The translations under genes were made by a program, and so were the position numbers. DNA of 63,886 bases, filler included, from Folioceros fuciformis (taxonomy: Eukaryota), in the NCBI GenBank assembly GCA_049999805.1. It is 8 parts of 8 records of this genome, joined end to end, with 100 filler letters (N's around TTAATTAATTAA, not from the genome) between each part and the next. Parts side by side here need not be neighbours in the genome. Positions count along the whole stretch, not along the records: positions 1 to 25,469 come from JBNGIO010004527.1; 7 more parts are not named here. One strand, given 5' to 3'. Each line of letters opens with the position of its first letter. The stretch's first letter is position 1. This document shows, piece by piece, positions 1,231-42,166 of the stretch. The notes under the pieces were generated by a model, which was given only the letters and a program-made list of their open reading frames with translations, made no database searches and had not been told where the DNA came from.

Positions 1231-2547
1231 CAAGGTTTAGTGGCTTCTTTGCCATGGGTGGTAGTAGGAAGCCTAGAAGGCTTGTTTAGGGTTTTAGTTA
1301 TTTTAGAAGAGCACCAAGTGAAGGTCAAGTGGCTTCTTTGCCACTGGTGGTAGTAGACCTTTTGTTATTTCATATCACAATAGTGTAGGCCTAGTAGGTA
1401 GCTTTGAGAATGAAGTTCTAAGGGCTAGTATGTTTTTTTTGTCTTGCTCACCTACTTGGAGTAGAGGGATTTTTTTAATAATTGGGTTGCAGTGTGATGT
1501 ATAGAATGAATGCCACATGTTAGCTAGCACTTGGAATGTTGTGGTTGGCCGAGCCCATAAAGGAGTGAGGCAAGTGTCGTTTCTTTTACTTTAACATAGG
1601 AAGAGACAAGGGAACAAGAGATACCCAGGGAGGGGAGGGGAGGGGAGGTCATAAAAAGCATAAAATTCGTGTGTCCCGTCGGTGCGTAGGGTAATGTGAT
1701 ATTCTGTCGTATGCATTGTTTATTGTGTACAAAAAGGTGTGTAGGTACTAGTACTACTTTCCATGGTGGACGTTAATTAGGGCCCGATTTGCTTGACGTT
1801 CACAAGGCCGTGAACATGTCTTCCTCGCATGCAGTTCAGTTCACCGTTGCGCCTCGTCTTCCTCTTCGCCTTTCTGCTTTCCCTTTCTTTAGGGTTTAAG
1901 TCCCTCGCAATTGGCCAGGCCATCGGTTCCAGCCCGCGGGTTCGCGATGCCCAACTTTCCTGCCATGTCGCACACCACTGGGGTTACTTGGAGGTAATTG
2001 TCCGCACCAGAGCTGCCAAATCGGGAAGGCTAATTTGCCGGTGATGTCGCCAATGGACGTGCTCGGTGCTTGCGGAAAGGATGTTAACAGCTGTCATCGT
2101 GTTCTTGCAGGTGGGATGTCGCAGCTTCTAGTTCCTAGCTCGGGACGAGTTGTTGACCTGATTGTATCGCTTTTGGATGCCCGGAGTCGCATCGTCTCGC
2201 AGGCTGTGTGTGTATCGACTCCTGCTTCTTTGTGGCTTGTTGCTCCCTCGAGACTTGACCAGAGGTAGATTGAAGGGTACTTTGGAGCGGGGATGCCCTG
2301 TCGCATCTTCGTGCAGAATGTGTACGATTGTTTGGCTGATTGCATCGGTCCTGTCGTGCAGATGTGTGGGCGGTAGGCGTCGGACCGTCTTGTTTGACAG
2401 AGGACCAGAGAGAGTGCAAGTTTGCAGTATCATAGAGTAGGCAGAGAGGTATTGCACAGGGAAGCTATATGAGGAAGCACAGGACGGGCAATCGCAGGAG
2501 GTAAGACTATACTTGGTAGGACTGAATGACAGATAAGTCAGGGGAGT

Positions 2548-5279
2548 ATGGAAATGGAGTGTGCGAGTGACCTTATGGTCTTGGGTAACAAGGGGCCACA
2601 GGATGGGAATGAGCTCAATGAGAGTTTGAGGCAAAAATTGGCCAACATTGACTGGGATGGCCCAGGATATAGGGAGAGTATGACAATCTTTCTGGAAGTG
2701 TTGGCACCTGAGCCTGCCGCAGGGACAGCAGCTGAGTTTCCGGGACAAGCTGGCATTCCAATACCGGGCTTTGGCTATGCAGTTTGTCAAGTGTGTCAAG
2801 AGCCAGAGAGTTTGGGGGAAACTTTGCTGTGCGATGGTTGCAGAACTAGCTTCCACATCACATGCTTGAGGCTGCAAGCTGAACACGCTTGTAAGCTTGA
2901 TGAATGGTTTTGCCAATCTTGCTCTGAAAGGGGGTTTAATGAGAGCTGGCCATTGGGGATGGTGGACTTGAATTTCATGCTAAGCAGGTCGTCACTGGAG
3001 GGAGGAAGGAAGGGGTGTAAAAATGTCCAGCAGGGGGGTCCCTCGGAAACTGCTGATTTGAGTAATATCACAGTGGAAGAGGCAACCTTTAAATCAGGGG
3101 ATGCAGGAATTTTGCAAGTAGAAGGAAGGGGACTTAATGGTGGAAGAGGCAGCCAGACTGATAACTTTAACAGCCCAAGGCAAGTACTCACCTGCATCAT
3201 TTCGTGAGGAAGTTTGCATCCGGGCACAGAAAAGCACAGTTTCTCCACTCCTTCTGTGTAGTCATAGCGCAAGGCTGATTTCTGTCAACCGTCTGGTTCC
3301 AGTCATCACTCCCAACTGACATAGTCTTAGCTGCATATAAGCTGTTCAGTATTTTAAAGAATCCCGTTCAAAGGATTAAGTAGATTTGGCATGTGTCTGT
3401 TTCAATTGTGCCTAGGAAATGTTTCATGACTTTGACTTTGACTTGCAGGCCCAGAGCTTCTTCACAGCTGTCGTCTGACGGTTCAGATAACAACAGCTTA
3501 GCAAGTTGTCAGAACAAGAATGAAAGGAAAAGATCAAGACAAGAAACTGAGACTACGTCAAAGTCTTTTTCAGAGCCGGACGTCCCAGTTGTTCATCGGG
3601 ACGTTGAACAAGATGGAACACATGTGGATCAGAGTGTGGACCAACTACAGGATGGGAGCCGTGTTTCCTGCTCACCCGAAAGATTATTGAAATGTGCAGA
3701 TGAAGCCCTGGAGCAGTTGCGGATCTACATAGCTTCAAGGAATGGGACTCTCGATGATGGTTGGACAGCTCACGTCAGGGAGAGAAGGAGGGAGGGTAGG
3801 GCTCCAACCACCCGGACCCACTATTATTCACCTGAGAAAAAACTTTTCTATTCACGCAAGCAGGTCGCACGACACCTGGGTCTTGTCGATAGCGAGGATG
3901 ACGCTGGAAGTGCAAGTGTTTGTGAAGCTGAGACCCAGGTCATGCAAACCAAGTGTGATGGCAGTGCACTTTCAGGTCATGCTGTTGAAAGGCTTGCAAA
4001 CGCTGTAACCGGGTCCGATGACACTGTGCCATGCTGCCAGAGTGCGGCTCCTTTTGGAGCCTTGCAGCCACCAACGGCGATGATGCCATATGATGGTGGC
4101 AAGGCTGATGCCTCGCTGACTACATGTCGCAGGTCTAAGCCAGCTAGGGCTGCCAACACTGGTGTGCCAGGGAAGGCAACAACTGATGCTGCTGAGTTGG
4201 AGCAGCAAGAGAGATTTCGCAGGTTGGAGGTTGCAGCCGTTGAGCAGTTGCGAAGGTATGTAGCTGATAGGAATGGAACTCTCGAAGACGGGTGGGCAGC
4301 AGACGTCACAAAAAGAAAAAAGGGTAAAGGGTCAACTGTAAGGACACATTATGTGTCACCAATGGGCAAAGTATTCAAATCGAGGGTGCAGGTTGTTGAA
4401 TATCTTGGTCTCCCAAAGAATGTTCCAAACAGCCAGGAAATTGTTGCTGCAGGCTACCGGACCACTGTAACAGACGTTGTGAATGCAGCTGCAAATGTGG
4501 GTGAGGTTATTGTACTATCAGGAGTGGTGGACGTGGAGCTACCGGTTCAGGTTCCCAAGGTCCCTGAAGAATCATCTAGAGTGTGGCGGCCAACCAAGTT
4601 GCTCGAGGCAGTGTCTGCTATGGATCCATCCCAACCTCGAGAAGCTGAATCTCTTCCTAGCCAAGTTCAAATACCAATGATGATTGAGCCACTCTCTCAA
4701 CCCGATCTTCTTTTCCAGACACATGCCTCCAGAAGTTCTTCAGGGAAGGGTTACTTGCAGCTTCTCGAGGAGAACATTGTGGGCATGAGAGACCGAAGTG
4801 GTAGACCGGGAGGAGGTTGGAATCAAGATGAATGTGGACTGGTGACAAACTCAGAATATGGGGTAGAGGAAAGCAGGTGTATGTTGTCAAGGATAGATAC
4901 TGCACACAATTCTGTTGTGGTGGAGCCCTTCATGGAACGAGTTCGAGAGGAGCAGTGGAAGGGGATACCTAACTCAAATTGTCATGATTCTGCAGAAGGT
5001 GCACCCAAAGACGAAAGAGAAGAATCTGAATGTTCAAAGTGTCAGGAGGATGCTGGCGATGCTTTGACAGAGGATGATCTACTGCGGAATATCAGGGAGT
5101 TTGTGGCAGAGCAAAACGTGTTGCTTGAGAAAGAGATGGACCTCCAGATGGAGAACACGTCGAACAGCTTCGCACCACGCAAAAGGGCAAGAGTCCGATC
5201 GTGTTTGGACATCGCGAGACAACTAGGTGCTTCTGGGTTGAAGAACCTGGATGTTCAGAGTCCGGACACTGGAGTATGA
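2548..5279 (+). CDS. PHD finger + two MBD-like domain protein (MBD9-like N-terminal architecture); exons 2548-3179 and 3449-5279
   Basis: The PHD reads CQVC..LLCDGC...FHITC...WFCQSC. Two MBD-like motifs read GWTAHV...THYYSPEKKLFYSRKQVARHL and GWAADV...THYVSPMGKVFKSRVQVVEYL. A phase-2 GC-AG intron at 3180-3448 (AG|gcaagt...ttgcag|G) joins the two ORFs in frame. The true 3' end may extend further. Confidence 0.8.
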
Positions 5280-5911: not shown

Positions 5912-7852
5912 TCACCCCAGCAGGTGCAAAAGAGCCAGCCCTCCCGACGCAAGAAGCAGCGGCACCATGTCTCGAGCATGCTGCTGCGGGTCTAGGGACA
6001 ATCCAGCGTCAAGTACGTTCATCTTGCAAGGCATGTTGAGCGCCTTGTTTACCAAGGATACAGAGAAGTCGGCTATTTGCGGGTTCTCCGCCTTGATAAG
6101 GTTGGGATACACCCGGCACCTGACAGACACAGCTGGGAGCTCCTCATCCTCGACTGGGAAGTAGCCGAGCCCGCAAGGCCCGCACCCAACCGCTGGTTGC
6201 TCACACGGTAGCTGCAATACTGAATTCGCTTCAACAATGGCGGACTTACTCAGATTGTTCCTCGTGTACAATTCCATCTCGTCAACTCCGCATGCCAGAG
6301 CCAACGCCGAAACCTGCAGGGACTGTGTTACCAGGAAGGTCGAGCCACAAGCAGAACAGGCAGAGGATGGGGCGGGCAGCTCGGCACAAGGCACAGATAG
6401 GTTCTGCCCTAACTGCAGTGGGGCCTTTGCCTGGCCGGGTAGGATCCCATTCGCGTACTGTAGAAGCTCGGCGGGGACCTGGCACAGCTGCGCCATGGTA
6501 TCAAGACTGGAGTCATTGACCTTCACCTCGGGGCTGCAGGGGCTGCATCTCGGCGAGAGCGAAGTTCCGCAGGTTACGATGAGTTGGAAATTCGGCGGCA
6601 CCTCGGTGTGCACTTTGGGATTGGCGGCCTCCAGCCCCTTCGTCCTGCATTTGGCCGATACCGCTGCTAAGCTCTCGTAATCCTGCGCTATGTACGAGGC
6701 CCCGCACAGCCCGCATTGCCTCGAGCTCTCCCCGAAGCAGGGCACGCTGATCAGTTGCCCCGGCCGGAGCACGGACGATTCGTTGCGGAGTGCAGGGTTT
6801 GCAGCCAGCAGTCCCTCGTTGCTCACTCGGCAGGTACGCGCGGCTATGTCGACACTTACTGCTTCCTTGGCGCGGTAAAAGATGCCACAGTCGCCGCATC
6901 CACTTGTGGATCTCGCCAGCTGCGGCTGCCCACACGGGACGCTGATGTACTGCCCTGGGTAAAGCTCCGGGTCTCCGGTAGCCGCAACAATGAGGTCCTT
7001 GTTGGCCTGGTGCAGGTCTTGGAGAAGAACACGGCACTTGGCGGCTATGGCTTCCAAGTCATCCCCATACTTGATGAAGTAGAAGGCCCCACAGGGGCCG
7101 CAGTCCGCTGGGTCTGTCCCCGTGCACGGCAAGTTCACCGTCCGTCCCTCGGCATCGTCTACACCCGGGTTAGCTTGCTGCAGCAGGCCGAGGTCGACAT
7201 TGCACGTCTTGGAAAGGGAGGAGAGCGTGTCGCCTACGCCTCCCGCGTACAAGTTGCCGCACACGCCACACCTCGAGGTGTTGAGCGACAGGGCAGGCGG
7301 CGCATCTGACGGGGCAGTGCTCGGGCTCGGATCCGGAGTTGGTTCTGGCCTTAGCAATGGAGAGGGTAGCCTCTGGGGGAGGCTCGTCGGCGCCGCCGGC
7401 GCACGTGTGATCGGAGGTGTCTGTGGAGCTTGCGGCGGAGGTGCTGTGGGAGGGGCTTCTGGAGGAAAGGTAGAAAGCGCCGGAGGTGAAGAAGCCGGTG
7501 ATGCTGGATCCGTCGGGGATGGAGTAGGAGCAAGTTCCACTGGTAGAAAGGGCGAGGGTGACCGGAGTCGCGTTTTCTTCCACTGCCACTTTCCCCTGTG
7601 CTTCCCCCACGTCTTCTTGTTCCTCTTGTTGGTCCTGTCGAAACTCGCGGAGTATTCCTCGAAACTGCTCCACGTGCCTAGCCGCGCGGGGAAGAGGTTG
7701 CTGAGAGGCGAGCTTCGTATGGACATGTGAGGACGACGGTCCTGCTCTAACGCTCTACCGACAGGGAGAGCGTTGAAGCGACCGAATCCCCTTGCGCAGA
7801 GGTGCACTGACCCGATCCACAACAGGAGGAAGAGGTGCCATCTTCTGGCCAT
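5912..7852 (-). CDS. Secreted, probably GPI-anchored Pro-rich protein with seven LysM repeats (intronless)
   Basis: A signal peptide MARRWHLFLLLWIGSVHLCARG starts at ATG 7852, in frame within ORF 5912-8035. A Pro/Ser/Ala stalk follows, then 7 repeats of CxxC..Y...GD.L..I...C......L..AN....L.PGQ.I.VPC. The C-terminal tail MVPLLLASGGLALLHLLG is hydrophobic. Confidence 0.8.
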   Translation of the reverse strand: MARRWHLFLLLWIGSVHLCARGFGRFNALPVGRALEQDRRPHMSIRSSPLSNLFPARLGTWSSFEEYSASFDRTNKRNKKTWGKHRGKWQWKKTRLRSPSPFLPVELAPTPSPTDPASPASSPPALSTFPPEAPPTAPPPQAPQTPPITRAPAAPTSLPQRLPSPLLRPEPTPDPSPSTAPSDAPPALSLNTSRCGVCGNLYAGGVGDTLSSLSKTCNVDLGLLQQANPGVDDAEGRTVNLPCTGTDPADCGPCGAFYFIKYGDDLEAIAAKCRVLLQDLHQANKDLIVAATGDPELYPGQYISVPCGQPQLARSTSGCGDCGIFYRAKEAVSVDIAARTCRVSNEGLLAANPALRNESSVLRPGQLISVPCFGESSRQCGLCGASYIAQDYESLAAVSAKCRTKGLEAANPKVHTEVPPNFQLIVTCGTSLSPRCSPCSPEVKVNDSSLDTMAQLCQVPAELLQYANGILPGQAKAPLQLGQNLSVPCAELPAPSSACSACGSTFLVTQSLQVSALALACGVDEMELYTRNNLSKSAIVEANSVLQLPCEQPAVGCGPCGLGYFPVEDEELPAVSVRCRVYPNLIKAENPQIADFSVSLVNKALNMPCKMNVLDAGLSLDPQQHARDMVPLLLASGGLALLHLLG

Positions 7853-10036
7853 GGCTCCCGCTGTCAAGTCAGTACTCTGGTCGGGGGTAGGATCCCGCCC
7901 CCGCCCGTTCCTAGGAACTCTGCCTGTCGAAGGGCTAGATGGCGCGGGTGTCTGTGCAAGGACCGGGCATTGGGTGGCATCCCGCCTTTCCCCCATGGCT
8001 AGCTGACAGCCTGAACTGCGGGTTACGCAGGACATAGCTCTCCTCTGTCAGTCAGAGAAATCTCTTCATAGGAAACTGGGACCGCTCTGTGAAGTCAAGA
8101 TCAGCGTCGCATCTGTTCAAAGTCCGTCGTACATATTTTATCGCATTCATTGAATTCCCCCATAACTGCGGCGTGCACGTCCGACAAATACGCCTATACG
8201 GAAACTGCAGAGGTCTGTCCAGACGGCTTACTGTATTAGGCCAAATGCACATGCAGTGATAAGAATCCCAGATGGACAGCGGTAGGTCTGGTATGGTAAA
8301 AGTTACCAACTTCCGTCACGGGATTCCGTCCTAATTGGATTCTAATAGGAATAGGATTTGTCTCTTGCATGTGGCCTGTCCTTCAACTATGCAGAAGGCA
8401 CAGGCGCTCGTCCCTCTGGGTTCACACCCAATGCGGATTTGTTTTGAAAACATTTATACGTATTCTTCGACGGCTGCTAGAACTTCCCACATGCATACAA
8501 CTGTCTATGACAGCAAGGGATTTTTTTTGAAGACGAGTGTTCGCTGAAGGAACGAATCAAGGATATCCCAGAGGACTAGGGGACGGCACAAGAATCTCAT
8601 CTCCACGTACGCCGATGTGCCGTGTCTCGGCGTATGTGGAGATGAGATTCACGATGCGCCGAATCTCTCAATTTTCAATTTGGGACGTGGATTTCGGTAC
8701 CACCGTGGCAATCGTTGCATATCCAAACATTCTGTCACTGGCACAGATGCGTCATCCTCTGTGTCCAGCCGACCAACATGAGAACGAAAGGGACTCTGCT
8801 CATCAACCACCTACCTGAACATGATCCGAAAGTTTACGGTGCGCAAGAATGCCCACAATTTCCTAATAGAGGTGAAGGAGTTGTTGGACGTGACCGAGGA
8901 TGGCGAACGCAGACTAAACTAGGGAGCTCCACCATCTCTTGGAAATGGAATACGAATGGGATACCCAACGAACTGTCTGAACAGCGTGACACAGCCCAAA
9001 TTGTTTTCCCTGTACTCTTTCCGTCGGGGCAGCAACCTGAGGGATGCACAAAGTGCTCAGTGTCTACAGAGACATCGTCTTCTCCACTTGAGCGCTGGTG
9101 AGCAGTAACCAGTTCATCCGCTGTGAACCGACATCAGCACCATGACATCCTACCAGTTGGACCCCGAGGAAACAAGCGTGCTCGCCGTGTCAGTATTTAT
9201 TCGGTGCGGACTTGCATCTCCTGAACACTGATGTCGCAATCGGACTACGAGTACTAGGTGACACGCTAAGTCTGCATTGCTCCACTTTCTTCCATTGCGC
9301 ATGTGGCAAGCGTTGTCGTCCCTATGGTAGCAAGTTACTTTTAGCTACGCAGCAAGAAGTAGTCGGATTACTATAGGAATAGGCCTGCCTGCCAAAGTGT
9401 CTCGCTCTGTCGAGTCAGGGGTGAAGGGGGGCTGCAGTCTTGAAGCACGGTAGTAAGGAGTGCTCTCAAAACACAGATTCTTCCTTGCACTGTTGCAAAC
9501 ATGAACTGTGAGGGGCTTTGAGTACAGGCGGATTAGAGACTTTGCAAGCATTGAGCGCAAGTAGAGAGAAGCAGGACGCGACTTACCCAAGGTAGCGTTA
9601 CATAGTCGAGGAGAGAAGGCTGCGCTGGCATGGTTCCACACATGCCGTTGGAGTTCGATCTTCTTAGTTCATAGCTTTGCACAGATCCCACGTTCATGCA
9701 TTCTGCATTCATTCATTCATTCCTGTTCCATGCCCTGCGAGGAATATCCTGCAATCATCGCACGCCACATCCCGATATCTCCTGAGAACCGCCCACGAGA
9801 TGCCTTGGGCTCCATCTCCGCTGCCAGACTTGGCATGTCCACCAAATTGCTTGGTGCAAACTCATGGGCTTCAAGTGCTTGTTCTCTAACTTGTACACCA
9901 AATCATTGTGTGCAGCTATGTCTTTTAGCTTCTTGAGCAGATTCAGAGGTGGACAGCTGTATGCTCCAAAGTTTTTCGTACGCATAGATCGTCTATGTTG
10001 ATAACCGGCTCCCTCTTCCTCTGGAAACGCCTGTTG

Positions 10037-13000
10037 TCAGCAATGCCTCATCTCGCCGACCAAAAAGCTATGAACCAGTCCGTCCATATCCGTCCACCAA
10101 CTCTGACCCGGCTGTTTCCATGCCCTCATGCTTTTCCTCCAGGCCTGCATCTCTATTCTTTGCTCCCACATCTGGACACCGGTGTATATGTTCGACATCA
10201 ACATGTATGCTGAGACATCTTTCTTGTCTAGTTTGACTGCTTCATCAAAGGCATGGCGACCTACGTTCACGTTATTCCACTTCCGACAGGCACCCAATAG
10301 AGTGTGCCAAACTGCAGAGTTAGGGAGTACAGGCATTGTCCTGACTACGGATAGTGCCTCCTCCAGTTGCCCTGCGCGACCCAAGAGATCAACGATGCAT
10401 ACATAGTGGTCTACTGTGGGAGTGACATTGTACTCCCGGCCCATAGCCTTGAAATACTCTTGCCCCTTGTTCACCAGACCCGTATGATTACACACGCTTA
10501 GTAGACACAAGAACGTGATGCCGTCTGGATCGATACCATCCTCGCCCATTCTGGAAACCAAGTCAAAGACTTCTTCACTGTTACCTTGACGGGTGTACCC
10601 TGCAATCAGTGCATTCCAGCTAGAAACGTCTCGTTTGGGCAGCGCCTCAAACACCTCCATTGCATCGGCCATGCTACCACACTTCCCATACATGTCTATC
10701 AAACTGCCTGCTACGAGGACATCAGCTTGGAGCCCTTGTTCTTTGATCTGTGCATGAAGCTGCTTACCAAGATGCAAAGCTGCAACACTTCCGCATGCCT
10801 GAAGGAGGCCCACAAATGTGACGGAGTTGGGTGCGACAAGGCCCTCTGATAGCATCTCCTTGTAAAGACACAGAGAGTCCTGACCCATCCCCTGCTGGGA
10901 ATACCCTGCTATCATAGCACTCCACGTTACAACATTTTTTTGGCCAAGTCCATCAAACAAGATCCGTGCATCCTCGAGACTGCCACACTTGGCATACATG
11001 TTCACCAAACTACTGGCTACGAACACATCGGCTAGCAGGCCTTGTTGTTCTCTGATATGTGCATGGAGCTGTTTTCCCGTCTCATAAGCCGGGGTACCCA
11101 CACTTGCGCATGCCTGTAGGAGGGAAACAAATATCATAGGATCAAGTGCAGCCATGCTCTCTGCTTTCATAGCCCTGTAAAGCTCCAGGGCTTCTTGCCC
11201 CATGCCATGTTGGGAATAACCTGCAATCATAGCACTCCATGTCACCAAAGTCTTTCCACAAATGCTGTCAAACACGACCCGAGCATCTTTTAGGTTCCCA
11301 CACTTTGTGTACATGTTTACCAAGCTGTTGGCAACAAACACATCGGCCTGGAGCTGTAGTTCTCTAATTTGTGCATGAAGCTGCTTTCCCATCTTCAAAG
11401 CTGGGGTGCCCACACTTGCACATGCCTGCAGGAGGCAAACGTATGTCACAGAATTCGGCGCAGCTAAGTCTTCTTCTTGCATAACACTAAAGAGCTCGAG
11501 AGCTTTCTTCCCCAGACCCTGCTTAGAATATCCGGCTATCATGGCACTCCAGGTCACCACATCTTTCTGAGGAAGAGCCTTAAATACAGAGTCAGCATCC
11601 TCTAGGCTCCCGCACTTGGCATACATGTCTACCAAACTGCTAGCTACAAACATATCAGCTTGAAGCCCTCGTTCTCTGATATGTTTATGAAGCAGCTTCC
11701 CTTGCTCCACAGCCGTACTGCCAACACTTGCACATGCCTGCAGGAGTGACACAAATGTCACAGAATCGGCTTCAACCATGCCTTCTTCTTGCATAGCCTT
11801 GTAAAGATTAAGGGCTTCATGCCCTATACCCCGCTGGGAGTACCCCCCTATCATAGCATTCCAGGTCACTACATTCTTTTGACCAAGTTTGGAAAAGACA
11901 CTCCAAGCATCGTCTATGCTCCCGCATTTTGCATACATATTCACTAGGCTCCCACCTACAACCATGTCAGCCTCAAGCCCTTCCTTTCTAATCTGGGCAT
12001 GAAGCTGCTTCCCTTTCTCCAAAGCTGCAGAGCCCACACTTCCACATGCCTGCAAGAGGCACACAAACGTCACAGAATTGGCTGCTGCCGTACCGTCTTC
12101 TAGCATAGCACTATAAAGATGAAGGGCTTTCTCACCCATGCTCTGCTGGGAATATCCTCCTATCATGACATTCCAAGTTACCACATCCTTTCGAAGAAGT
12201 CCGTCAAACACTCTCTGAGCGTCTTCTAAGCTGCCACACTTTGCATACATGTCTACCAAGCAACTACACACAAATAAATCAGGCTCAACGCCACTAGCTA
12301 TCACATCAGCATGCACCTGCTGCCCAGCTTTCAAGTCTGCTTCTCTCGCACAAGCCTGAAGGGCTGCTACAAACACATGGCCATTTGGCTTCACTCTTGA
12401 CCTCCGCATACTATGATACAGCTCTATAGCCTTTCTGTCCTGTTCGTGCTTAGAATGAGCAGAGATTATGGCACACCACGTGAAGACATCTGGGTCGGCA
12501 ACCATAGAGAACACATCCATGGCCTCTTGCAACCTGGCATGAGAAGCATACATTCTCAAGATTTGATTGCACAGGAACGTATCTGAATCATACCCCGTCC
12601 TAACAATGAGAGCATGAATACAGCGACCCAAAGCCAGATCTTTCTTGGCCACACATTCCTTTAGGACCGTATACAAAAGAGATGTGGAGATATAGCACTC
12701 TGTGTGCACCAGAACTCCCATAGCCTCAACAGCCTCTGCCAGCTGCCCCTGCTCACATAGCTTGTGGACCGTTTCCACACTTACCCCTTTCCCGCAACCT
12801 GCGGGCCTTTGAGTGTCAAGAGCAGCCGGCACACTCCAGTTGGATATGGAGGCACGATGACCCATCTCCACATCCATGGCAACCAGCTGGTCATCCCGCC
12901 AAACGTGCCTGCAGAAGTTGTTCAGTCCGACGCCCTCCTGGCACTCCCCATGCTGCCGGTCAGACGAACAAGAACCGATCGAAGACATGCATCTAGCCAA

Positions 13001-13201
13001 ATATCCTCCTTGGTGGAGTGCCTCCCTTACGCACCTCGTGAAAATACATGCTTCACTGTTGCCCGACGGGTGGCTCCTTGATTTCGGCTGAACGAGTGCT
13101 CTTCCTGGCATGTCGGATAACCCTGCACTTCGTTGCGTCCAAAAATACTGGACCCCCATCGACTTTCTGTCCGGTTCGATTCCTACGCTCCAGACAGCCA
13201 T
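10037..13201 (-). CDS. PLS-class PPR protein, E1-E2 plus WW-type PG box, truncated before the deaminase core (E+); start codon uncertain
   Basis: Repeating P-L-S motifs (DVVTWNVMIGGY / NSVTFVCLLQAC / FVASSLVDMYAKCG) are followed by E1 (VWHTLLGAC) and E2 (SAYMLMSNIY). The protein ends KQPGQSWW...HSFLVGE with no HxE/CxxC. Confidence 0.92.
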   Translation of the reverse strand: MAVWSVGIEPDRKSMGVQYFWTQRSAGLSDMPGRALVQPKSRSHPSGNSEACIFTRCVREALHQGGYLARCMSSIGSCSSDRQHGECQEGVGLNNFCRHVWRDDQLVAMDVEMGHRASISNWSVPAALDTQRPAGCGKGVSVETVHKLCEQGQLAEAVEAMGVLVHTECYISTSLLYTVLKECVAKKDLALGRCIHALIVRTGYDSDTFLCNQILRMYASHARLQEAMDVFSMVADPDVFTWCAIISAHSKHEQDRKAIELYHSMRRSRVKPNGHVFVAALQACAREADLKAGQQVHADVIASGVEPDLFVCSCLVDMYAKCGSLEDAQRVFDGLLRKDVVTWNVMIGGYSQQSMGEKALHLYSAMLEDGTAAANSVTFVCLLQACGSVGSAALEKGKQLHAQIRKEGLEADMVVGGSLVNMYAKCGSIDDAWSVFSKLGQKNVVTWNAMIGGYSQRGIGHEALNLYKAMQEEGMVEADSVTFVSLLQACASVGSTAVEQGKLLHKHIRERGLQADMFVASSLVDMYAKCGSLEDADSVFKALPQKDVVTWSAMIAGYSKQGLGKKALELFSVMQEEDLAAPNSVTYVCLLQACASVGTPALKMGKQLHAQIRELQLQADVFVANSLVNMYTKCGNLKDARVVFDSICGKTLVTWSAMIAGYSQHGMGQEALELYRAMKAESMAALDPMIFVSLLQACASVGTPAYETGKQLHAHIREQQGLLADVFVASSLVNMYAKCGSLEDARILFDGLGQKNVVTWSAMIAGYSQQGMGQDSLCLYKEMLSEGLVAPNSVTFVGLLQACGSVAALHLGKQLHAQIKEQGLQADVLVAGSLIDMYGKCGSMADAMEVFEALPKRDVSSWNALIAGYTRQGNSEEVFDLVSRMGEDGIDPDGITFLCLLSVCNHTGLVNKGQEYFKAMGREYNVTPTVDHYVCIVDLLGRAGQLEEALSVVRTMPVLPNSAVWHTLLGACRKWNNVNVGRHAFDEAVKLDKKDVSAYMLMSNIYTGVQMWEQRIEMQAWRKSMRAWKQPGQSWWTDMDGLVHSFLVGEMRHC

Positions 13202-13635
13202 GGCTTGTAGGAGTACGCTGTGTCAATTTCTTTCTGGCATGCGCCCCCTCCGTATGACACACACGAGCGTGGACGAGAGGAGGACCCAGCTGGGGAAGCT
13301 GAAACGTGGTACTCGGTGGTGAGCGTGCCTATGTTCCTCCATTCCTAGCTGGGACAACGAAATGCAGGATATGGGGTCATTCGGTGTTGAGCCTTGCGAG
13401 TCCGGTGGCTCAGTTCCTAGGGGCACAGACATGGAAGCATCTGAAGGCACCTAGTTGGTGGAGCACGAAAGACCTTACACATTCTTAGAGCTTACAAATT
13501 TTAAGAATCTCCGAGCTCTGAGAATCAACAAGGTGTTTGGTGCTCCTCCTCCTAAGAATTCCCTCCTCGGCAGAATACAAGTGTTCACACAAGGAGGGAA
13601 ACTCCGTAAGGGCAGTCAACTAAAGGAAGTATGAC

Positions 13636-16183
13636 TCAGTGCCTGTCTCCACATGAACAGAACCCATTAACGAAGTGGTGAACACGGTGGGCATCTCTAA
13701 CGATTATTTCTCGATTTTCAATCCTGGACATGGCCTTGGTGCCGCTGTGGCAATCATCGCACATCCGGAGATTTTTTGTAACTAGCAAACTTGCACCATG
13801 TGGAGTGTTTAGCAGACCATACGCTAGAGCCAGTTTCTCAGCGTGTCCACACAGCACATCTTCCTTTTGTTCCTGAATAGCTGCATTTGGTGCCACCGCA
13901 ATGTGGGGAAGACTGCCTCGCTGTTCTTCCAAACGGAGGTTTACACTTGTAAGCTTGGAGGCGACGTCGTCCGCTTCTTCCCCTACCAGGAACGTATGGA
14001 CCTTACCTTTCACCTCGATCCAGGCTCTTGCAGGCAGCTTCTGGGCACCTGAAGACTTCCTTAATCTCTCTATCCCCTCAAAATCCCTCCAAACACCAGC
14101 ATTTGCGTAAATTTTCCCCAAGAGCACATACGCAGCTGAGTTTTGAGGTTCCAGTTTTGTAAGTCGTTCAAAACATCGCCTTCCCCTTCCGACGTCACCG
14201 TGGCTCTTGCAGGCATTCAGCAAAGACTTCCATCCGACGATATCTGCATCAGATTGTTGTGACAGGAGCATGTCTTCTGCCTCATCCAGATGGCCTGCTC
14301 GCCCAAGAAGATCAACCATGCAGTTATAGTGGTGGGATGAGGGCCGGATTCCATGCTTCTTCACCATGAGATTGAAATAGTGCTGACCCTCCTGTACCAG
14401 CCCTGCATGACTGCATGCCACTAGAAGACAAATGAAGGTAGCCTGATCGGGCTCGACCCCCTGCTGCTGCATCTCCGTGAAGCACTGCAGGGCTCTTACA
14501 CCATCACTACATTGGCTGTAGCCGTTCAGCAAAGCGGTCCATGTTACAACGTTTCTGGTAGGCAATCTGTCAAACACTCCGAGAGCATCCATCAAGCTGC
14601 CACATTTTGCATACATGTCCACCAGACTGTTGCCAACGGCAGAGTCTGCTTCCAGTCCTCGTTCTTGGATTTGAACATGAAAGTGCTTGCCCTGGTGTAA
14701 AGCTCCCACAGATGCACATGCGTTCAGGAGGCACACATATGTGACATGATCTGGAGCGATCATGCCTTCTTGTTGCATTCTTGCGTAGAAATTAAGAGCT
14801 TCTTGACCCAGCCCATGCTGACAATATCCTGAAAGAATGGCGTTCCAAGTCACAACACTTTTCGTGGGTAAGCTGTCAAAAACTTTGACAGCCTCTTCCA
14901 GCATCCCACATTTTGTATAACCGGCAATCATGGCACTCCCTGACACAGCATCCTTCGTAAGCAGATTGTCAAACGCTACACGAGCATCCTCCAGGCCGTC
15001 ACATTTCACAAACATGTCCACCAGATTCCTGCCAATCTCCTCATCCTTATCCAATCCCCTTTCCTGAATCTGAGCAAACAGCTGCTGCCCATGATCCAAG
15101 GCACCAGAGCTGGCACACGCTTTCAAAAGGGCTACAAATGTGTTGTGATTGGGAGCAGTCGCACATTCCCATTGCATACTTGCATACAGCTTAAGGGCTT
15201 CTCGACCAGACCCACAATGAGCATATCCTGAAAGCATGGCATTCCATGTGACAGTATCTTTCTTCTGCAAATTGTCAAACACTATACGGGCATCCTCCAT
15301 GCTTCCGCACTTAGAGTACATGTCTACCAAACAGGTGCCAACCACTAAATCCCCTCCAAGTCCAGCTTTCTCAATACTCCAATGAAGTTGCTTTCCCTGA
15401 TGTAACGCTTGGATGCTGGCACACGCCTTCAAGAGGGAGATGAATGTTACACGATTTGCTGGAATTAACCCCTCATTTTGCATACTCGCATACAATGCAA
15501 GGGCCTCTCGACCAGCTCCATGGCCAGCGTATGCAGTGAGCATAGCATTCCAAGAGACAACAGTCTTAGTTGGCATCTTATCAAACGCCCCACGAGCATC
15601 CTCTATGCTCCCGCACTTTGAATACATGTCAATCAGCGAGTTCCCGACAAATACATCAGGCTCGAGTTTGCTTCCCAACACATCAGCGTGAACCTCCCTT
15701 CCAGATCCCAAATCCGATGCACTGGCACATGCTTTCAAAACTGCCACAAAAATGTGATTGTTCGGTTGTACTGTTGTTTTCCGCATTTGTCGGTAGAGCT
15801 CCACAGCCTGCATGGGGTGCCCATGATCGGCATGTCCCAAGATAATGAAAAACCAGGAAAACACGTTCGGTGCAGCTAGCGTTGTGAACACATGTGTTGC
15901 ATCCTCCAACTGCCCATGAGAAGCATACATGCGGATGATGTGGCTGGCCAAGAACGTGTTCACCTCATTTCCGCTCCTCTGAGCAATATCATGAACTCGC
16001 CTTCCAAGCACCAAATCTTTTTTTTCAATGCACCCCTTGAGAAGACGGTAGAGAAGAGGCACCCCCACAGGCGATCGATGACCCAGTAAGAGCTCTGAGG
16101 CTTCAACTGCCTCACGAAGATGTCCATCATCACATAGTTTGCTTAAGGCACGAGAGTTCAACAAGCTGTTACTCCTGGATGAC
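13636..16183 (-). CDS. PLS-class PPR protein with complete DYW:KP / DRH-type deaminase-like domain (candidate U-to-C organellar editing factor); 5' exon not resolved
   Basis: A PLS array, E1 and E2 are followed by KLPARAWIEV...HTFLVGE, CGHAEKLA, KNLRMCDDCH and terminal CSCGDRH. A splice acceptor tttgcag|G at 16184 precedes the long ORF, which implies an upstream exon. Confidence 0.93.
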
Positions 16184-17049
16184 CTGCAAAGTGGAAAACC
16201 CTGTCAAACCCAGCCCAAAAGAAGGCTATAGCAACTCTCAGCGACCGGCTGAGTAGGTGGCCAACCTATCGGAATTTCTACCATCTCCACGCCTGAATTC
16301 AGGCTGGTAGGGTGCCCTACAGGCACCAGCAGTTTCCACTAGCTGTAGCTTCACCCATGCGTCGTTTGAATCAACCCACACCGCATCTTTTGATGTGCTG
16401 TCCACACAGTCCGGATACCTTGGGCTCCTCTGCAATTCCCACAAACGTCAATTTCTGAACAAAGGCTGAAACAGGCTTCAAAAAACAGGAATATGGCAGA
16501 GAGGGACCACCTTGTTCCACCCGCTGGCCCTCCAGTCAGAAGGATTTGCTCCAACCTTTTCCACTGCAAGGGAGCTGAACAGAGACACCTGACAGCCCCT
16601 CAGTTGAACCTCCAGAAGAAGAGGACTGATGCAAACTCTGATACCAAGCCTGCAGCATTGGGATAGCAACCTCAGCTCCCTCCCTTCGTCACGGAAGTCC
16701 CGAACGGAACTGAATTGGTGTTATCCTACCTCATCAGACCTGCTGTGCCAGCTCTGCCAGTACTTGTTCATCCACAAAGGTTCCCGTACACGTAGGTCCA
16801 CTGCACGCAACCTGGAACATGAGAACGAATGGACTTCCTCCCATCACCTACCCGACGTGATCAAAACACCGGGCGGGCTCCCCTCTTTTCAGCCGTCTTG
16901 ACAGCACTCCTGTCTTCATTTCATTTTTCCGGAACCTCACCGCCTCGACTCACAAAATCTAAACATATTTTCTTATAGTTGGAGGCGCGAAGGTGAGGCC
17001 TAAGCACTTGGGGAGCGAGCCAGGCGGGAGTAACAGTCTGGCACTCCAC

Positions 17050-17409
17050 ATGGCTGCGGCGCAGGGGCCTAGCAGGACGGCGGAACCTTCGCTCAAGCGG
17101 AAGCGCGGGCTCTTCGCCAAGGATCTGCGGCTTATGATGTACGGGTACGGGGACGATCCGGATCCAATTTCCGAGAGCGTGCTCCTGGTGGAGGACATTG
17201 TGGTGGAGTACATCACCGACATGATGCACAAGGCGCAGGATGTGGCCGCTCGCAGAGGGAAGCTGACCACCGAGGACATCATGTTCATGGTGCGCAAGGA
17301 CGCCCGAAAGTTTTCCAGGGTAAAGGAGCTGCTGGCCATGAACGAGGAGCTGAAGCGTGCCAGGAAGGCGTTCGAGGTGGATGAGGAAAAGCTGGCGTAC
17401 GAGGACTGA
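17050..17409 (+). CDS. TAF13: Transcription initiation factor TFIID subunit 13
   Basis: The sequence KRKRGLFAKDLRLMMYGYGDDPDP...LVEDIVVEYIT...RGKLTTED.MF.VRKD.RKF.RVKELL.MNEELKRARKAF matches the TAF13 histone fold. ATG is at 17050 and the coding region is a single exon. Confidence 0.95.
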   Translation: MAAAQGPSRTAEPSLKRKRGLFAKDLRLMMYGYGDDPDPISESVLLVEDIVVEYITDMMHKAQDVAARRGKLTTEDIMFMVRKDARKFSRVKELLAMNEELKRARKAFEVDEEKLAYED

Positions 17410-19205: not shown

Positions 19206-20394
19206 CACAAATGCTCGGTGATACTTGATCAAAGATAGAAATGTTCATTGGGAAGGTGATGTATGCTAGGTGAACACTTAAAATTCGTAGCATTCTTGTC
19301 ACAAGGCAATAACACTCATCAAAGGGTTGTACAACTCGGTTCGAGGCAGAACTGGTTGTAAGGTGATAAACAATAATTAACATTCAATGGCTTAGAATTG
19401 CTACATGAAAGGAAAGCCAAAGCCCACTTTGCTTGCTGTACCATGAAGTTCAGTGCTCAATCTATGTGCCTCTAAAGGGGTCTGTGTGCTAGCGTGCTGC
19501 ACTTGCAGCAGCAGGAGCGAGTTTAGCAAGTGGGGTAAGTGACACGACCAGCTAGAATAAATTGAGTCTTTTAAATTTACCCCCTGGATCGTCGTCGTCC
19601 ATTGGAATGGTGACGGTCTTGCAGCGGGACGAAGGCGGTTCCGTTGGCCAGCTGAACGGTTAGGAGGGAAATTTTGAGCGGCTCGTGGAGTTTTGCATGC
19701 ACAATAGCCGACGGCCGCCTGGGCACTGGGTGTCGAGTGCTGGGTAAGCTGAGGGCCGAGGCTGACATCCATCAGCTCATGAATGCGCAAATTCGTGCGA
19801 GCTTGTCAGCCGTCACGGACTTTCTTTGTTGCGAGCGTGAGTAAGCCAACGTCCAGTCCCAATCTGACCGGGGCTGCAAAAAAAGAGTCGGACTCCCAAC
19901 TTCCTGCTCCGGACCGGACCCTCTCATGGCTGTGCAAAGCCTGTGTGGGGTCGGCCTGTGTGGGGTCGACCTGTGCTGCTTTGAATTCAGATCACCAGGC
20001 CTGCGCTGCCGGAGATCGGACGTGCTCTTCGGTCTCGCCCTCGCGTGCTTGCTCTTCCCTCGATTTCATTGAGCCGCTCGCATGCGGAAGGACAAGCCGT
20101 GCTGCGCCTTTTCAGTTTGGTGTATCTCATTCCCCTTCTCGCTTGCGGAAGGACGTTGTCGATCCTTCCCTGCGCGAGAGCGGGAAATTTATTCTCGTCC
20201 GTACCGAAATATGTGATGATGAAGTCTAACTGCCTGCCGAGGACTCTGACGAGCTGGTGCTAGGGAAGGACTCGTCAGATTGACGTCGGACCCAGCTACT
20301 GCACATCCTGCTGCCTGCTGCCAGCTGCAGCGGACGTCGGGGTCGGCTTCCGCTTTGGCGAAGCTGCCAGAGGGCCTGGTGGCGCCGGATTGCG

Positions 20395-23300
20395 ATGTCG
20401 AGCACTCGGCCAGCGGCTGAGAACATGTTGCGCGGGGAAGGTCGGCTGCAATCTTGGAGCATTCCACCGCGGCTGAGGCACATGCTGTGGCCGCTCGGGA
20501 GGCCGAAGCACGCGGTTGGGGACCTGGAGCTGGCCCAAGGCGGCACGGGCGTGGAGGCTGCCATGGCGCGGGCCGAGCAGGCTGCCCCGAATTCTCTCCC
20601 TCCTTCCTCACAGGAGGAGAAGAGGGGTGAGGATTGCGGGGGACAGAGGCAGCAGAAATTGGACGCTGCCGAGCTGGGCCGGCCCGAGGTGGCCAAGGGG
20701 CATCAGGATGAGCCTGTTTATCATCTGCGGGTACCGCAAGCTGGGCTTGGGGATGTGGGCTGTTGGGCAGATCCGAAGATTAAGTCACAGGACTCGGAGG
20801 CGGTACCGGTTGTGTCGCTGCTGCCAGATGAGATGGGGAACCTGAGGAAGCGTGTTGTGGAGGCAGACACACAAGAGGAAGACGTGGGCTGTACTGCCAC
20901 CCAGCGGCTGAGGGGATCGCGATTGGCGGTCCGGATGGCGACTCAAAAGGGATCCCAAGTGCACACGTCCCCCTCCCGAAAGCTTGCTGTGGCAAGCATG
21001 GAAGAACGAATTCAAGATTGGCTGGGTCGCTGCAGGCTGTCGCCAGAAGAGAGATCCCGGTTTTCACTCACGGCAATGGATGGAAGGGGTCTCCGTGCTG
21101 GATATGGAGGTCAAGGTGAATTTGAATCGGTGGGCTGCCGGAGGACGGCGGTTGGAGAAAGGAATGATTCGGTGTCTGGATTGAACGGAAATTCTTCTGG
21201 CCCGACTGGAGGCGAGCAGGGACGTGCGTTGAAAGGGAGCAGCCTGACGGTGGGTCCTCCGGAAGGAATATTGAAGGAATGTCACGAAGGTAAGGAGTTG
21301 GAGAGAGAGGAGTGGGCAATGTTTGAAGGAGCTGCAGCGGAGCCAGGGCAAGACGAGGCTGTGCGACAGACGTCCGTGCAGGCTGGTGGTATCGGGCAAG
21401 ACGCGGGGGATGATGTGGCTGCAAGGGATGCCACAAATTCTGGGCAGAAGTGTTGCTCTCCAAGTGCTCATAACGATGTGCCGTGTCGGGTCACCGTGGA
21501 CAGAATTGCGGCAGTCCAAGATGAAGGAGACAACTGGTTTCCGTTGCAAACATTTACACGGGAATATTTGACATCTAGCAACGGAGGCTATCGAGAAGAG
21601 ATGGACAGTGAGAGTATCCTTGGCTATTTCCCGTTGGTCACCAGTGTTCCACTTCAAACACAAGGTCGAGCCTCCCATGTTCCACAAGACAAACAAGGTC
21701 GGGAAAAATTATTTTCAGTTCCTGGACCTATTCTTCCAAGGAAACATGGAGTCCAGAATGTTGGAAGACCTGTGACTACAGCTCAGGTTGCTACACCGAA
21801 ATTTTCTCCTCCTGCACTTCAACTCCTGCTTTGTGCAGCAGCTCCCGCCGATGCACCGGGGGATGCTGCGACTTTTCCTGGCCAAACAGGTGTGCCACCT
21901 TTAGAAGCCCAACAACAGTTTTGCGTCTTGTGTCGCAATCCAGAGACACAAGAGAGCTTGTTGTGCGATAAGTGCCACAAAAGCTTTCACGTGGTTTGTC
22001 TGGGGATAGACCTCAGGACAGATGCCCTTCAGGAGGAATGGTTGTGTCCTTCCTGCAAGATTGATGAAGGTCCTTGGAGTTGGAAACTTAGAAAGGTAGG
22101 TGTAGGTGCACCTGTACGTGAGGCCCAGCGGCAAGGGCTCCGAAGTGCTGCCAGACAGACAGGGCATGCTGGCGCCTCCATTCAGGATGATGACAGATTC
22201 GGCAGGCAAGTTATACAGAGATCTCTCTTCTTCACGCACAAATTGTCGTTTGTGTAACTGATTCTCCTAATTTTTATCTTCTGCTTTGCAGATTTGAGGC
22301 TTCGGAGCTACGGAGCAATGGAACCTATGGCTCCACCATGAATCTCAGACGCAGGAAGGCTACCGACTCAGCCGTTGCGGACCAGCTTCCTTACGACGGT
22401 GGGCAGTCTCCATTCGAAGATTCCTTCATACTAGAAGACCCCTACTACAGAACCAAGTTTGCACCACGATTTTCAGAGGAGATTGTCCGGAAGTACGAAG
22501 CTCAAGCCGTGGAGAAACTGCGGATCTACATTGAAGACAAGGGTGGAGTGTTAGCGGAAGGATGGATCGGCCGATGCATGCTGGTGAAGCACAGGACGGC
22601 ACTGCAAGCGTATTATGTGTCTCCGAGAGGGAAGAGGTTCCAATCGAAAGTGCAGGTGGCAGATTATATGGGACTGATGTCATTAAAACCCAGGCAACCG
22701 CATTATTCCACTCAGCTGATGCAACCAGAGCAGTCGCAAAAGATGAAAATTGAAGCAGAAGCAGTGCAAAACTTGCGAAAGTTCATTGCTTCCATGAACG
22801 GCAATCTTGGACCAGGTTGGACAGCTCAAGTCGTTCCCAAGAAACACATACATGGCAGGATGCACATCTGCTATTGGTCTCCCGCACCGGACAAACTTCA
22901 GTTCAGAACGAAGATGAAGGTGGCACAGCACCTGGGTCTGGTGGATGAAGGACGTAACGATGTACATTTCACAGAACCAGACCAGACAGGACTTGAATCC
23001 GCTCCTCATCAGCAGGTCGCAAGCTCTGACGTCTCAGACCACCAGGAGCACCGGGAACAGTGTGCTTGCAGCGAAGGGATGAGAACCAATGAGCAGGAAC
23101 TAAGAGATCCAGATTTCCCTCGACAACCTTCTGCATATCAAGCTATGAACGAATTACAACCGAATTGGGATTCCTCGGTGGGAGGTGAAATGGCTGGGAG
23201 TAGTGCCGATTATTCAAGTGCTCGACATGTTCGAACCTTCGGACCAAACCAGTGGTTCAACATTGTTCCTTCCGTTGACATTACCGGTGGGCGAGAATTG

Positions 23301-25469
23301 CAATCAGCAGTGACAGTGAGTGTGCGACCTGAGGGCCGCCATCAGCATGCGTCCTTGAAGGACAAGGACGGCAGGCAGGAGGCTTTCATACTCGGGTCTA
23401 ATTTGGGCTTGAAGGGTTTGCCCACAGGCACTGGTGTCCCATCCACACCGCAGATTTCGAGCATCTCATGGGCCCCAAAACGCTCTGATGCAGCAGAGAT
23501 CCGCAGGAGCGTGGATGTAAGCTTACAGAGGTGGGTATATCATCTTGCATGCATCTGAATTCGCATGCTGCCTCAATTGACAGCAACTTGAAGTGGCTCG
23601 TTGGCAGGTGCATCAATGACTACCATGCTGTTGAAGACAACGGTGGCCATACAAGCCAGGATGCAACACTGTCGTCCGGACACAAATCACACAGGACTAC
23701 CGCCGCAGCTGGGCCCAACATTTCGAACAACGTGACTGACAACAAACTCACCTGTAACGGGTACCCTCTCTTCGTCCCTTTTGAAGATGCCATACCCAGC
23801 CGACCTATTTGGTGTCCTGCTCGTATGGATTTCTGTTAAATAAAATCTCCGACTGATCTACGGGACTGTGACTGGCTGGCAGTTGTAGATCGGACGAAGA
23901 TGCACTTGTCGACGATAATGCTGTCCCAAGAGGCAACACACGTGTGCCACCAGAAGCAGCAGATGACAACTCCAAGCGCAGCAAAGTGGTGGCATCAACG
24001 AGGGTGATGTGAGTGAAAAGCACACTCCTACGCCTAGACATACTCCTAGACCGCGCCGTACTTTGTTCTGAACACCCGGCTGTTTTGCAGGAATCTGGCA
24101 CGAATTGCTGCACCTGCAGAATGCAAAGATGTAAAAGGCGAAAAAACTATCCGACAGAGAGTTGAAGCAGCCACGAGGCAGGTTCTGTTGACGGAGATGT
24201 TCAGGCCACTGAAGAGATCCAAAATGAATGCTCCCCGGCCAGTGGAGCCGTGCGATGCTATGGCAGAAAGCAACTCAGGCACCGGTATCGGAGGTGCGAC
24301 AACGGGGGAGGTGGGTTCGACGAGCCATGGGCGTGCTTGCTCCACAACGGTTTATCAGGTGGACCCTCAGGCAGCTGGTAGATGGGATATGGAGGATACC
24401 CACATTAAAGCCTGCTTCTGCACACCGCGCGAACCCTTCCTGGACCAGCCAACGGAGCCACTGCACGACAAGACAGCCAACCCAGACGAAGTAGTTCCAG
24501 TAGCGGAGTCTGAGAAGCGCAAGGGGAGGAGAAAGACGGCCCAGGCCCAGCCCCAGGCCCAGGAATTAGAAAAACCTGATGACAATGGCAAGGAGGCGAG
24601 GACGAAAATGCCGAGAACACGAAGCAGAGATCAAGCACCTGTCGCAAGCGCGCAGGATGACGACACGCTCGGGCGGAGAAAGAGGATGAAAACTGTCACC
24701 AGAGAACCCCAACAGATGGGCAGGAACAGCAAAGACTCCACACATGCGGACCCAGAGCAGGAGAAAGAGGCACAGGCGGTCCCGCAACCAGGCAGACGGA
24801 GGGGACGGCCTCGCAAGGTGCTACTCCCCCCTCCAGAAATGGTGCCCGCTCAGAAACCAAAGCAGCAGCGGCCCACACCGGCGGCTGGAAAGCAATCAGC
24901 CCTTCCACAGCCTTTAGAGACACGCAGGGGTCGCCCCAGAGGAGCCCATGCAGTCGAAAACGTCCGCAGCATCCCCAAGCCCAAGAAGGCCGCCCGGGGG
25001 CCGCTCCAAGACTCTCCCCGAGACAGCTGCGAGTACGTGGAGGTGGACGCGCCATCCATCTTCAGCTTCCCTGCCGCAGTCGTGAAGGAGGAGCCCATCA
25101 GCGACGCTGAAACTGCGAACGTAGCGAGAAGTAGGAGACGGCGCGCTGAAGCCGTGCATGCATATGGGAGAAGTGCAAGGAGGGCTCGCATACAATCCGA
25201 GGACGAAGCCTGGGCGGAGGCCAAGGCCGACGCGGACGGGCCATGGATCCGGAACATCGTGGCTGTGCATGACGGCAACTACAGGGTGTGGGATGACCGG
25301 GGCTTCGCGGTGCCCGAGGACGAGCTCGGAATGGCAAGGACCGTGTACGGGGCTCGGCACAACCGCGTTGGCCGCGAGGTGTTCAGAGGCGACTACCGCG
25401 GCGTAATCGGGAACAGGAACGATGTGGCTGCGACTGGGCCAGGTCACAGGACCACGATTCGCAAGGACT
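20395..25469 (+). CDS. PHD + two MBD-like + AT-hook protein; exons about 20395-22205, 22292-23530, 23608-23760, 23889-24008, 24091->25469 (runs into gap)
   Basis: The PHD reads CVLC...LLCDKCHKSFHVVC...WLCPSC. MBD-like motifs read GW...YYVSPRGKRFQSKVQVADYM and GW...YWSPAPDKLQFRTKMKVAQHL, and AT-hooks are RRRGRPRK and RRGRPRG. All four proposed introns are phase 2 and keep the frame; the first is GC-AG (22206-22291). The start codon is uncertain. Confidence 0.8.
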
Positions 25470-25569
25470 NNNNNNNNNNNNNNNNNNNNNNNNNNNNNNN
25501 NNNNNNNNNNNNNTTAATTAATTAANNNNNNNNNNNNNNNNNNNNNNNNNNNNNNNNNNNNNNNNNNNN
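25470..25569. other. Artificial scaffold-join spacer (also near 32818-32917, 39928-40027, 42067-42166, 44910-45009, 60267-60366, 62431-62530)
   Basis: An N-run, TTAATTAATTAA (stops in all frames) and a second N-run recur identically seven times. Confidence 0.95.
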
Positions 25570-42066: not shown

Positions 42067-42166
42067 NNNNNNNNNNNNNNNNNNNNNNNNNNNNNNNNNN
42101 NNNNNNNNNNTTAATTAATTAANNNNNNNNNNNNNNNNNNNNNNNNNNNNNNNNNNNNNNNNNNNN

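Follow-up and report, generated by a model that had tools for sequence, protein, structure and literature searches.

An intact DRH-type DYW:KP PPR gene in the hornwort Folioceros fuciformis, a likely candidate for a U-to-C RNA editing factor

Here, we show that the hornwort Folioceros fuciformis (GCA_049999805.1) carries an intact PPR gene, presumably nuclear and transcribed, that encodes a DRH-type DYW:KP protein. We analysed a window of 63,886 nucleotides, by which we mean the whole stretch of DNA under study; it is stitched together with artificial spacers and therefore a gene neighbourhood can be read only in positions 1-25469. The reading that we favour, with a probability of roughly 0.6, is that the product, a PLS-E1-E2-DYW:KP protein of DRH type, goes to an organelle and there most likely acts as a U-to-C factor for one or a few uridines in organellar mRNA. 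The original prediction had called the gene an intact natural U-to-C factor. An intact DRH-type DYW:KP gene is indeed supported by its motifs, its domain length, two trees and spliced contigs, while the U-to-C direction, likely as it is, is inferred from the family to which the gene belongs.

The gene (Table 1) contains a minus-strand stop-to-stop frame of 855 codons (13636-16203) that has no ATG ahead of the repeats. A 2540-nt contig of the public sequencing run X1 matches 17380-16729 and 16181-14598 with 0 differences and skips 243 nt between these two blocks. Canonical splicing can account for the missing 243 nt in 19 ways, only one of which supplies an upstream in-frame ATG; it has introns of 80, 81 and 82 nt, starts at 16734 and gives a precursor of 951 residues. 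The other 18 GT/GC-AG solutions provide no upstream ATG and were rejected. The gene is spliced, with exact exons and targeting that stay putative; exons 2 and 3 come from the splice model because the interior letters of the contig are not shown. With the exon interiors as modelled, the first 30 residues of the N-terminal extension would contain three Arg, one acidic residue and four Ser/Thr, which is compatible with a putative organelle targeting peptide. Several out-of-frame ATGs lie upstream of 16734, and the one at 16771 overlaps the start.

Table 1. Parts of the DRH gene, from start to stop, and neighbouring genes (positions along the window)
Feature	Position	Strand	Basis
Exon 1 end, inferred start codon at 16734; then 80-nt intron 16729-16650	16730..16734	-	contig and splice model
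Exon 2, inferred, putative targeting peptide begins; then 81-nt intron 16510-16430	16511..16649	-	contig span
Exon 3, inferred; then 82-nt intron 16265-16184	16266..16429	-	contig span
Last exon, entire PPR array and DYW domain, intronless	13636..16183	-	contigs and splice model
PLS array: degenerate first motif, L1-S1, three P1-L1-S1, extra S (SS), one P1-L1-S1; 16 motifs	14551..16158	-	hand-set borders
P2-L2-S2 triplet, 35/36/32 aa	14242..14550	-	hand parsing
E1 (14241-14140) and E2 (14139-14038), 34 aa each	14038..14241	-	Pfam, hand parsing
DYW:KP deaminase-like domain, DRH type, 133 aa and stop	13636..14037	-	Pfam, PDB matches, alignment
PG-box equivalent: LP for KP at positions 1-2, Trp at 6	14011..14037	-	alignment
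G64-H65-A66-E67-K68: zinc ligand and catalytic Glu; Ala replaces Ser of PG domains	13834..13848	-	alignment
Lys88, active-site lysine, also conserved in PG	13774..13776	-	alignment and papers
CxxC, catalytic zinc site	13750..13761	-	alignment
C-terminal D-R-H and stop	13636..13647	-	translation, genome pattern count
Tandem downstream PLS-E1-E2-E+ PPR gene, SWW box, ends before deaminase core	10037..13222	-	Pfam, translation
TFIID-18kDa (TAF13-like) gene, upstream, divergent	17050-17409	+	Pfam

A second X1 contig covers 12633-14329 with 0 differences from the window, and therefore the DYW motifs and the stop codon are not assembly errors. X1 may be the assembly's own sample and is thus not necessarily independent; we took it as RNA by guess, since its contigs skip intron-like stretches and the record bears no RNA label. 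Run X2, from a different organism, provides four gap-free contigs along the gene at ~92-95% identity. The DYW region shows 54 differences in 684 nt between X2 and the query, and the four DYW differences listed are two silent ones and two toward the family consensus. We count the spliced contigs and the X2 relative in favour of our preferred reading.

The identity of the DYW domain is far beyond chance. Pfam finds DYW_deaminase (E=8.5e-33), the E motif (4e-14) and PPR_2 (4e-84) in the query protein, and the only sequence matches in the PDB are three solved DYW proteins, namely 9KFX (E=4e-35), the OTP86 DYW domain (1e-31) and DYW1 (1e-26). Single-sequence prediction left the DYW part at pLDDT <50. 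With an alignment of 52 rows as input, the model reaches pLDDT ~90 in the deaminase core and stays <50 in the gating segment, and its fold matches 9KFX, 7O4F and 7O4E at E values of 1e-15 to 5e-11; the top six fold matches are all DYW structures. Since the gating segment is poorly modelled, we make no claim on the gating geometry.

The residues of the domain are L1-P2, W6, K88, M92, C93/C96, H97, H120, C127, C129 and D131-R132-H133, followed by the stop, so that all zinc ligands are kept, including those of the second zinc site. As had been predicted, HAE stands in place of HSE (A66; 13845-13837, minus strand), the CxxC motif is intact at its expected place (C93/C96) and the protein ends on DRH instead of DYW. 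HAE, or alternatively HCE, is the KP form of this motif. Position 66 is Ala in 32/32 nearest paralogues and Ser in 27/27 PG-like rows, these groups themselves being defined by HAE and HSE. The altered PG box, which had been read as KLP, is present, but its K is the last residue of E2, and therefore LP replaces KP and Leu takes the place of the KP lysine itself. The literal Lys-Pro pair is thus half present, with Pro2 kept and Lys1 changed to Leu, and the PG pair is absent. Paralogues have K (30/32) or M (2/32) at position 1, and the KP-like rows from outside have K in 28/36 and L in 1/36. Trp6 is found in 23/27 PG-like rows and 28/32 nearest paralogues and in only 2/36 KP-like proteins from outside. 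We regard LP and Trp6 as minor deviations.

A shortened gating region had also been claimed. The region is shorter, but this is the family-standard KP deletion: KP domains are defined by a deletion of 3-4 residues (xHP) that leaves 132-133 aa, the alignment shows the gap in the query, and a length of 133 aa is shared by 24/32 paralogues versus 136 aa in 18/27 PG-like rows. Beyond this, the gating segment of the query departs from the paralogue consensus. The helix after CxxC carries Lys at position 101 and not Glu, and K88 is found in 27/27 PG-like rows as well. By our own mapping onto a PPR-DYW structure of 2026, the interface residues R91, R114, R118 and H121 are all kept, and F596 of that structure corresponds to V119, which is typical of KP. 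A PG box, HSE, a length of 136 aa and a DYW end, which together define DYW:PG, are all absent from the query.

Clustering with canonical DYW:PG domains had been named as one outcome that would speak against the original prediction, and the query stands apart from the PG rows in both of our trees. In a 96-row tree, which omits 2/65 homologues with aberrant ends (P0066 and P0067), it falls among HAE domains, with the PG-like rows on one side of a branch. In a 65-row tree, which uses 12/65 homologues and takes in six HSE and ten GRP-clade domains of this genome, it lies inside the KP group (SH-aLRT 96-97), and the GRP clade, supported at 97, does not include it. Both are quick IQ-TREE runs with SH-aLRT support only, in which about half or more of the forks stay open. 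Published KP references are not part of the rows; among the named KP-like entries, P0037 from Ceratopteris lies closest to the query. The branch of the query is long for its group (0.31-0.35 versus a median of ~0.2). The DRH-stop, the position outside the GRP clade and Lys101 in place of Glu assign the query to the DRH subgroup. Elsewhere in the genome, on contig C6303:72525-72788 (L036), we noticed an HAE-bearing DYW domain in which the xHP segment is retained; it terminates in DQW and groups with the PG type; HAE alone is therefore no marker of KP.

The query gene is an ordinary one: its class has been published, and the genome has hundreds of such genes. Exact DNA patterns count 359 CGHAEKLA-coding sites, 55 CSCxDRH-stop ends, 188 GRP ends (at least one of them without a true stop) and 193 QPGQSWWTD sites, while the HSE pattern, which is not exhaustive, finds 9 sites of which 2 are not HSE; reversed-pattern controls gave 0. 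All 150 candidates that were scored, out of 559, match the query at E <1e-47, and the 149 besides the query itself are 57-76% identical to it. The 34 best database homologues (48-63% identity) comprise 32 assembly proteins and two JGI proteins, one of which, P0035 with HSE, takes rank 33. Identity to the query is 46% for a KP-like protein of Ceratopteris and 44% or less for seed-plant DYW proteins.

The protein follows the (P1L1S1)n-P2L2S2-E1E2-DYW order with standard motif lengths and has 19 PPR motifs with P2-L2-S2 counted (31/35/36 aa), then E1 and E2. In the PPR code the pairs NN and NT stand for a pyrimidine and SS for A. At the query motifs we read S/N (-20), N/T (-17), N/N (-16), T/D (-14), N/N (-13), S/S (-10), N/D (-9), N/N (-7), T/D (-6) and N/D (-4), and several motifs carry non-canonical pairs, e.g. 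F/N and R/D. Together with the published pairs SN=A, TD=G and ND=U and the alignment of S2 to position -4 relative to the edited site (PMC9478123), the clearer pairs predict a target with A(-20) Y(-17) Y(-16) G(-14) Y(-13) A(-10) U(-9) Y(-7) G(-6) U/C(-4). Organellar sequence for a target search was scarce: rbcL has no match in this genome assembly, cox1 has one short match of 61 positions in a nuclear context, and a mitochondrial contig of a related organism, looked for among metagenome contigs in two pattern scans, gave 0 hits. The cox1 fragment lies at contig C1915 (L031:1500-1675, minus strand). Some of its codons presumably look unedited, and one would need U-to-C. C-to-T decay of a nuclear cox1 copy could mimic unedited codons.

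KP proteins have been placed in hornworts, lycophytes and ferns, with DRH and GRP as hornwort subgroups (Gerke 2020, as cited). The claim that DRH/GRP forms occur in all three lineages thus fits KP as a whole, while the two subgroups are described as belonging to hornworts. KP proteins are confined to U-to-C-editing lineages, and their arrays match U-to-C sites (Gerke 2020, as cited). Three of seven designer KP proteins were active in U-to-C editing, namely KP2 and KP3 (GRP) and KP6 (fern) (Ichinose 2022, PMC9478123). In contrast, KP1, which is mainly DRH-based and the only tested DRH protein that we found, showed 0% editing of both the U and the C target in 3/3 replicates, in both E. coli and HEK293T, and in E. 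coli it was inactive with or without MORF2 or MORF9 (PMC9478123). KP6 edits in both directions (PMC9478123), and its direction is shifted by single residues (Ichinose 2025, PMC11845758): L6C, V17T, D47E, D116A and I119V act toward U-to-C, and E64G, L113V and F133H toward C-to-U, the triple making KP6 C-to-U only. U-to-C editing by KP6 was abolished by K693A and K713A and reduced by K626A and K683A (Chun 2024, PMC11713852). K88 is essential for U-to-C yet conserved in PG (PMC11845758), and HAE has been described as not discriminating the direction of editing. A lysine-uridine conjugate has been proposed, with cytidine release as a hypothesis (Hayes 2024, PMC11332814). The analysis also drew on PMC13386178, PMC12733224, PMC10030945, PMC7611903, PMC10226603, PMC13324415 and PMC12684383. 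The activity of natural KP proteins is stated as unknown by Ichinose 2025 (PMC11845758), and our literature search, with subscription journals mostly outside its coverage, found no title that reports an assay of a natural KP protein or activity of a DRH domain.

Compared with these proteins, the query is closest to the hornwort DRH subgroup, on which KP1, designed from 301 DYW sequences, was mainly built. It shares the PLS-P2L2S2-E1E2 architecture, 133 aa, HAE, M92 and the DRH end, and its residue numbers line up with those of the published KP consensus; it differs by Leu and not Lys at 1, Trp and not Cys at 6 and the divergent gating segment. It is set apart from KP1 as a natural protein with its own array. 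GRP domains (KP2, KP3) share the KP clade, HAE, K88 and the 133-aa type, but form a separate clade (SH-aLRT 97), have Glu where the query has Lys101 and end on GRP. The DYW:PG editors (OTP86 7O4E/7O4F, DYW1 7W86, synthetic 9KFX) are alike in fold, HxE..CxxC, second zinc site and lysine, but carry the PG box and HSE, retain the xHP segment at a length of 136 aa and end on DYW. In KP6 and its derivatives KP6u and KP6c (PMC11845758, PMC11713852, PMC11332814), K58, K68, K88 and E67 are in register with the query. With an offset of 625, KP6 K693, K713, K626 and K683 correspond to positions 68, 88, 1 and 58; the query keeps three of these lysines and has Leu at 1. K68 and K88, whose KP6 counterparts are essential for U-to-C, are both present, and they are necessary, not sufficient. 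While KP6 has E64, L113, D116, I119 and F133, the query combines A116 and V119 (U-to-C side, as KP6u) with G64, V113 and H133 (C-to-U side, as KP6c), and C6, T17 and E47, the other residues favouring U-to-C, are absent. At 28 of the 44 positions at which KP6 differs from the 133-aa KP consensus, the query is in the consensus state (hand count), which confirms KP membership and does not settle direction.

In the mechanism that we propose, the spliced mRNA would yield the precursor, whose N-terminal extension of ~110 aa may direct organelle import. The PPR array would then bind the RNA on the 5' side of the edited base, its S2 motif placed at -4, the zinc site H65/C93/C96 together with E67 would hold the base, and K88 would attack C4 of the uridine as nitrogen donor, giving a conjugate and finally cytidine. 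The K88 chemistry is carried over by analogy from the work on designer KP2, KP3 and KP6, of which KP6 is the source of the lysine-crosslink mechanism, and the release step is a hypothesis there. We count in favour of U-to-C editing the KP hallmarks, the KP-group placement, the 28/44 consensus states, the K58/K68/K88 register, A116/V119 and the lineage restriction. Counted against it are the 0% of KP1, G64/V113/H133, the missing C6/T17/E47 and Leu1 (K626A reduced KP6 U-to-C), as well as K88 being shared with PG, HAE being neutral, the divergent gating segment and the long branch.

Several of these points would fit a protein that is expressed but weak, partner-dependent or an orphan paralogue, which still binds RNA although its own site is gone, or which depends on a cofactor from hornworts. 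Such proteins are to be expected in a fast-evolving family of hundreds of members. The inactivity of KP1 in two hosts, with no help from MORF2 or MORF9 in E. coli (PMC9478123), the K1L change, the divergent gating segment, the F/N and R/D pairs and the very large family all point this way. However, the frame is unbroken, the zinc ligands and R91, R114, R118 and H121 are all kept, and the gap-free X2 contigs at ~92-95%, with DYW differences that are two silent and two toward consensus, speak against it. We consider this explanation possible, if doubtful.

The direction of editing could also differ. The same gene and fold might act C-to-U or in both directions, so that Trp6 DRH paralogues would not be obligate reverse editors; we hold this to be unlikely. 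In its favour are G64, V113 and H133, which are the KP6c triple, and W6, which the PG-like rows (23/27) and nearest paralogues (28/32) have in common and only 2/36 outside KP-like proteins share. KP6 itself is bidirectional (PMC9478123), and canonical HSE is scarce in the genome (9 pattern sites, 2 not HSE, by a pattern that is not exhaustive). Yet the triple is plain KP family consensus (G64 in 31/32 and V113 in 32/32 paralogues) and was assayed only in the fern-based KP6. A116 and V119 are present too, KP1 showed no C-to-U activity either (PMC9478123), and the large WW/E+ set (193 sites) is the class predicted for C-to-U.

The tandem downstream neighbour belongs to this discussion. It stops 20 residues after WW and resembles the DYW:WW class; tblastn within the window found no hidden DYW exon for it. 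All 13 SWW frames in 12 fetched loci, this neighbour included, end without a deaminase core, in a sample that is biased since the frames are the best matches to a truncated search sequence. Published work describes E+ genes as enriched in hornworts, full-length DYW:WW domains as known there, and the WW/E+ class as predicted for C-to-U sites. It might be that the Trp6 DRH branch, which includes the query, is a C-to-U or bidirectional class and not a set of reverse editors, and that it possibly also lends its deaminase in trans to truncated WW/E+ proteins such as the tandem neighbour, as G64/V113/H133, W6, the few HSE genes and the 13/13 WW frames would suggest. This seems quite improbable to us, and full-length hornwort DYW:WW domains are the more obvious deaminase donors. 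If true, a C-to-U role of the Trp6 branch would split DYW:KP by function and help to explain the failure of KP1 in U-to-C editing. Finally, a canonical DYW:PG C-to-U editor with odd residues, a pseudogene or an assembly artefact, to which the PG-like W6 and the absence of an ATG before the repeats in the unspliced frame might point, is highly improbable given two trees that split the query from the PG rows (six HSE domains of this genome included), 133 aa, HAE and DRH, the 0-difference contig over the DYW exon and the one splice model that supplies an ATG.

The X1 contig 12633-14329 runs continuously from the 3' end of the DRH gene through the intergenic stretch into the 5' part of the WW neighbour. 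Neither strand nor expression level nor individual transcripts can be read from contigs, and therefore we do not take it as a dicistronic mRNA; it may reflect transcript overlap or read-through, which look alike in contigs. Beyond the stop of the neighbour there is a 97-nt GT-AG intron (9586-9490), and a degenerate PPR motif remnant lies in its 3' region (9678-9902, minus strand). On the other side, the TAF13-like gene is arranged head to head with the DRH gene, with ~315 nt between the start codons and one contig that spans both 5' regions. The assembly contig of the DRH gene also holds two PHD-finger and MBD gene regions (2530-5279 and 20284-23558, plus strand) and a LysM-domain gene (5912-8047, minus strand). 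Elsewhere in the window, pieces of gag, protease-like, integrase and RT sequence are left of broken copia-type retrotransposons at 34213-37040, 40612-43799 and 47204-48022. Paired N runs occur at 25470, 32818, 39928, 42067, 44910, 60267 and 62431, and the three that were inspected flank a 12-nt all-frame-stop linker. Contig C4527 differs from the window at 44462.

Gerke 2020 and Gutmann 2020 may already list this gene, or an orthologue together with its predicted target. Owing to its KP-to-LP change and its divergent gating segment, the gene is a somewhat poorer choice for first experiments than consensus-like paralogues. The amination of uridine in plant RNA is still an open question, and a natural DRH protein that edits its own target would inform both the mechanism and U-to-C tools. 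The query opens that question no more than its many paralogues do, but it is useful as a natural variant for asking which residues set the direction of editing.
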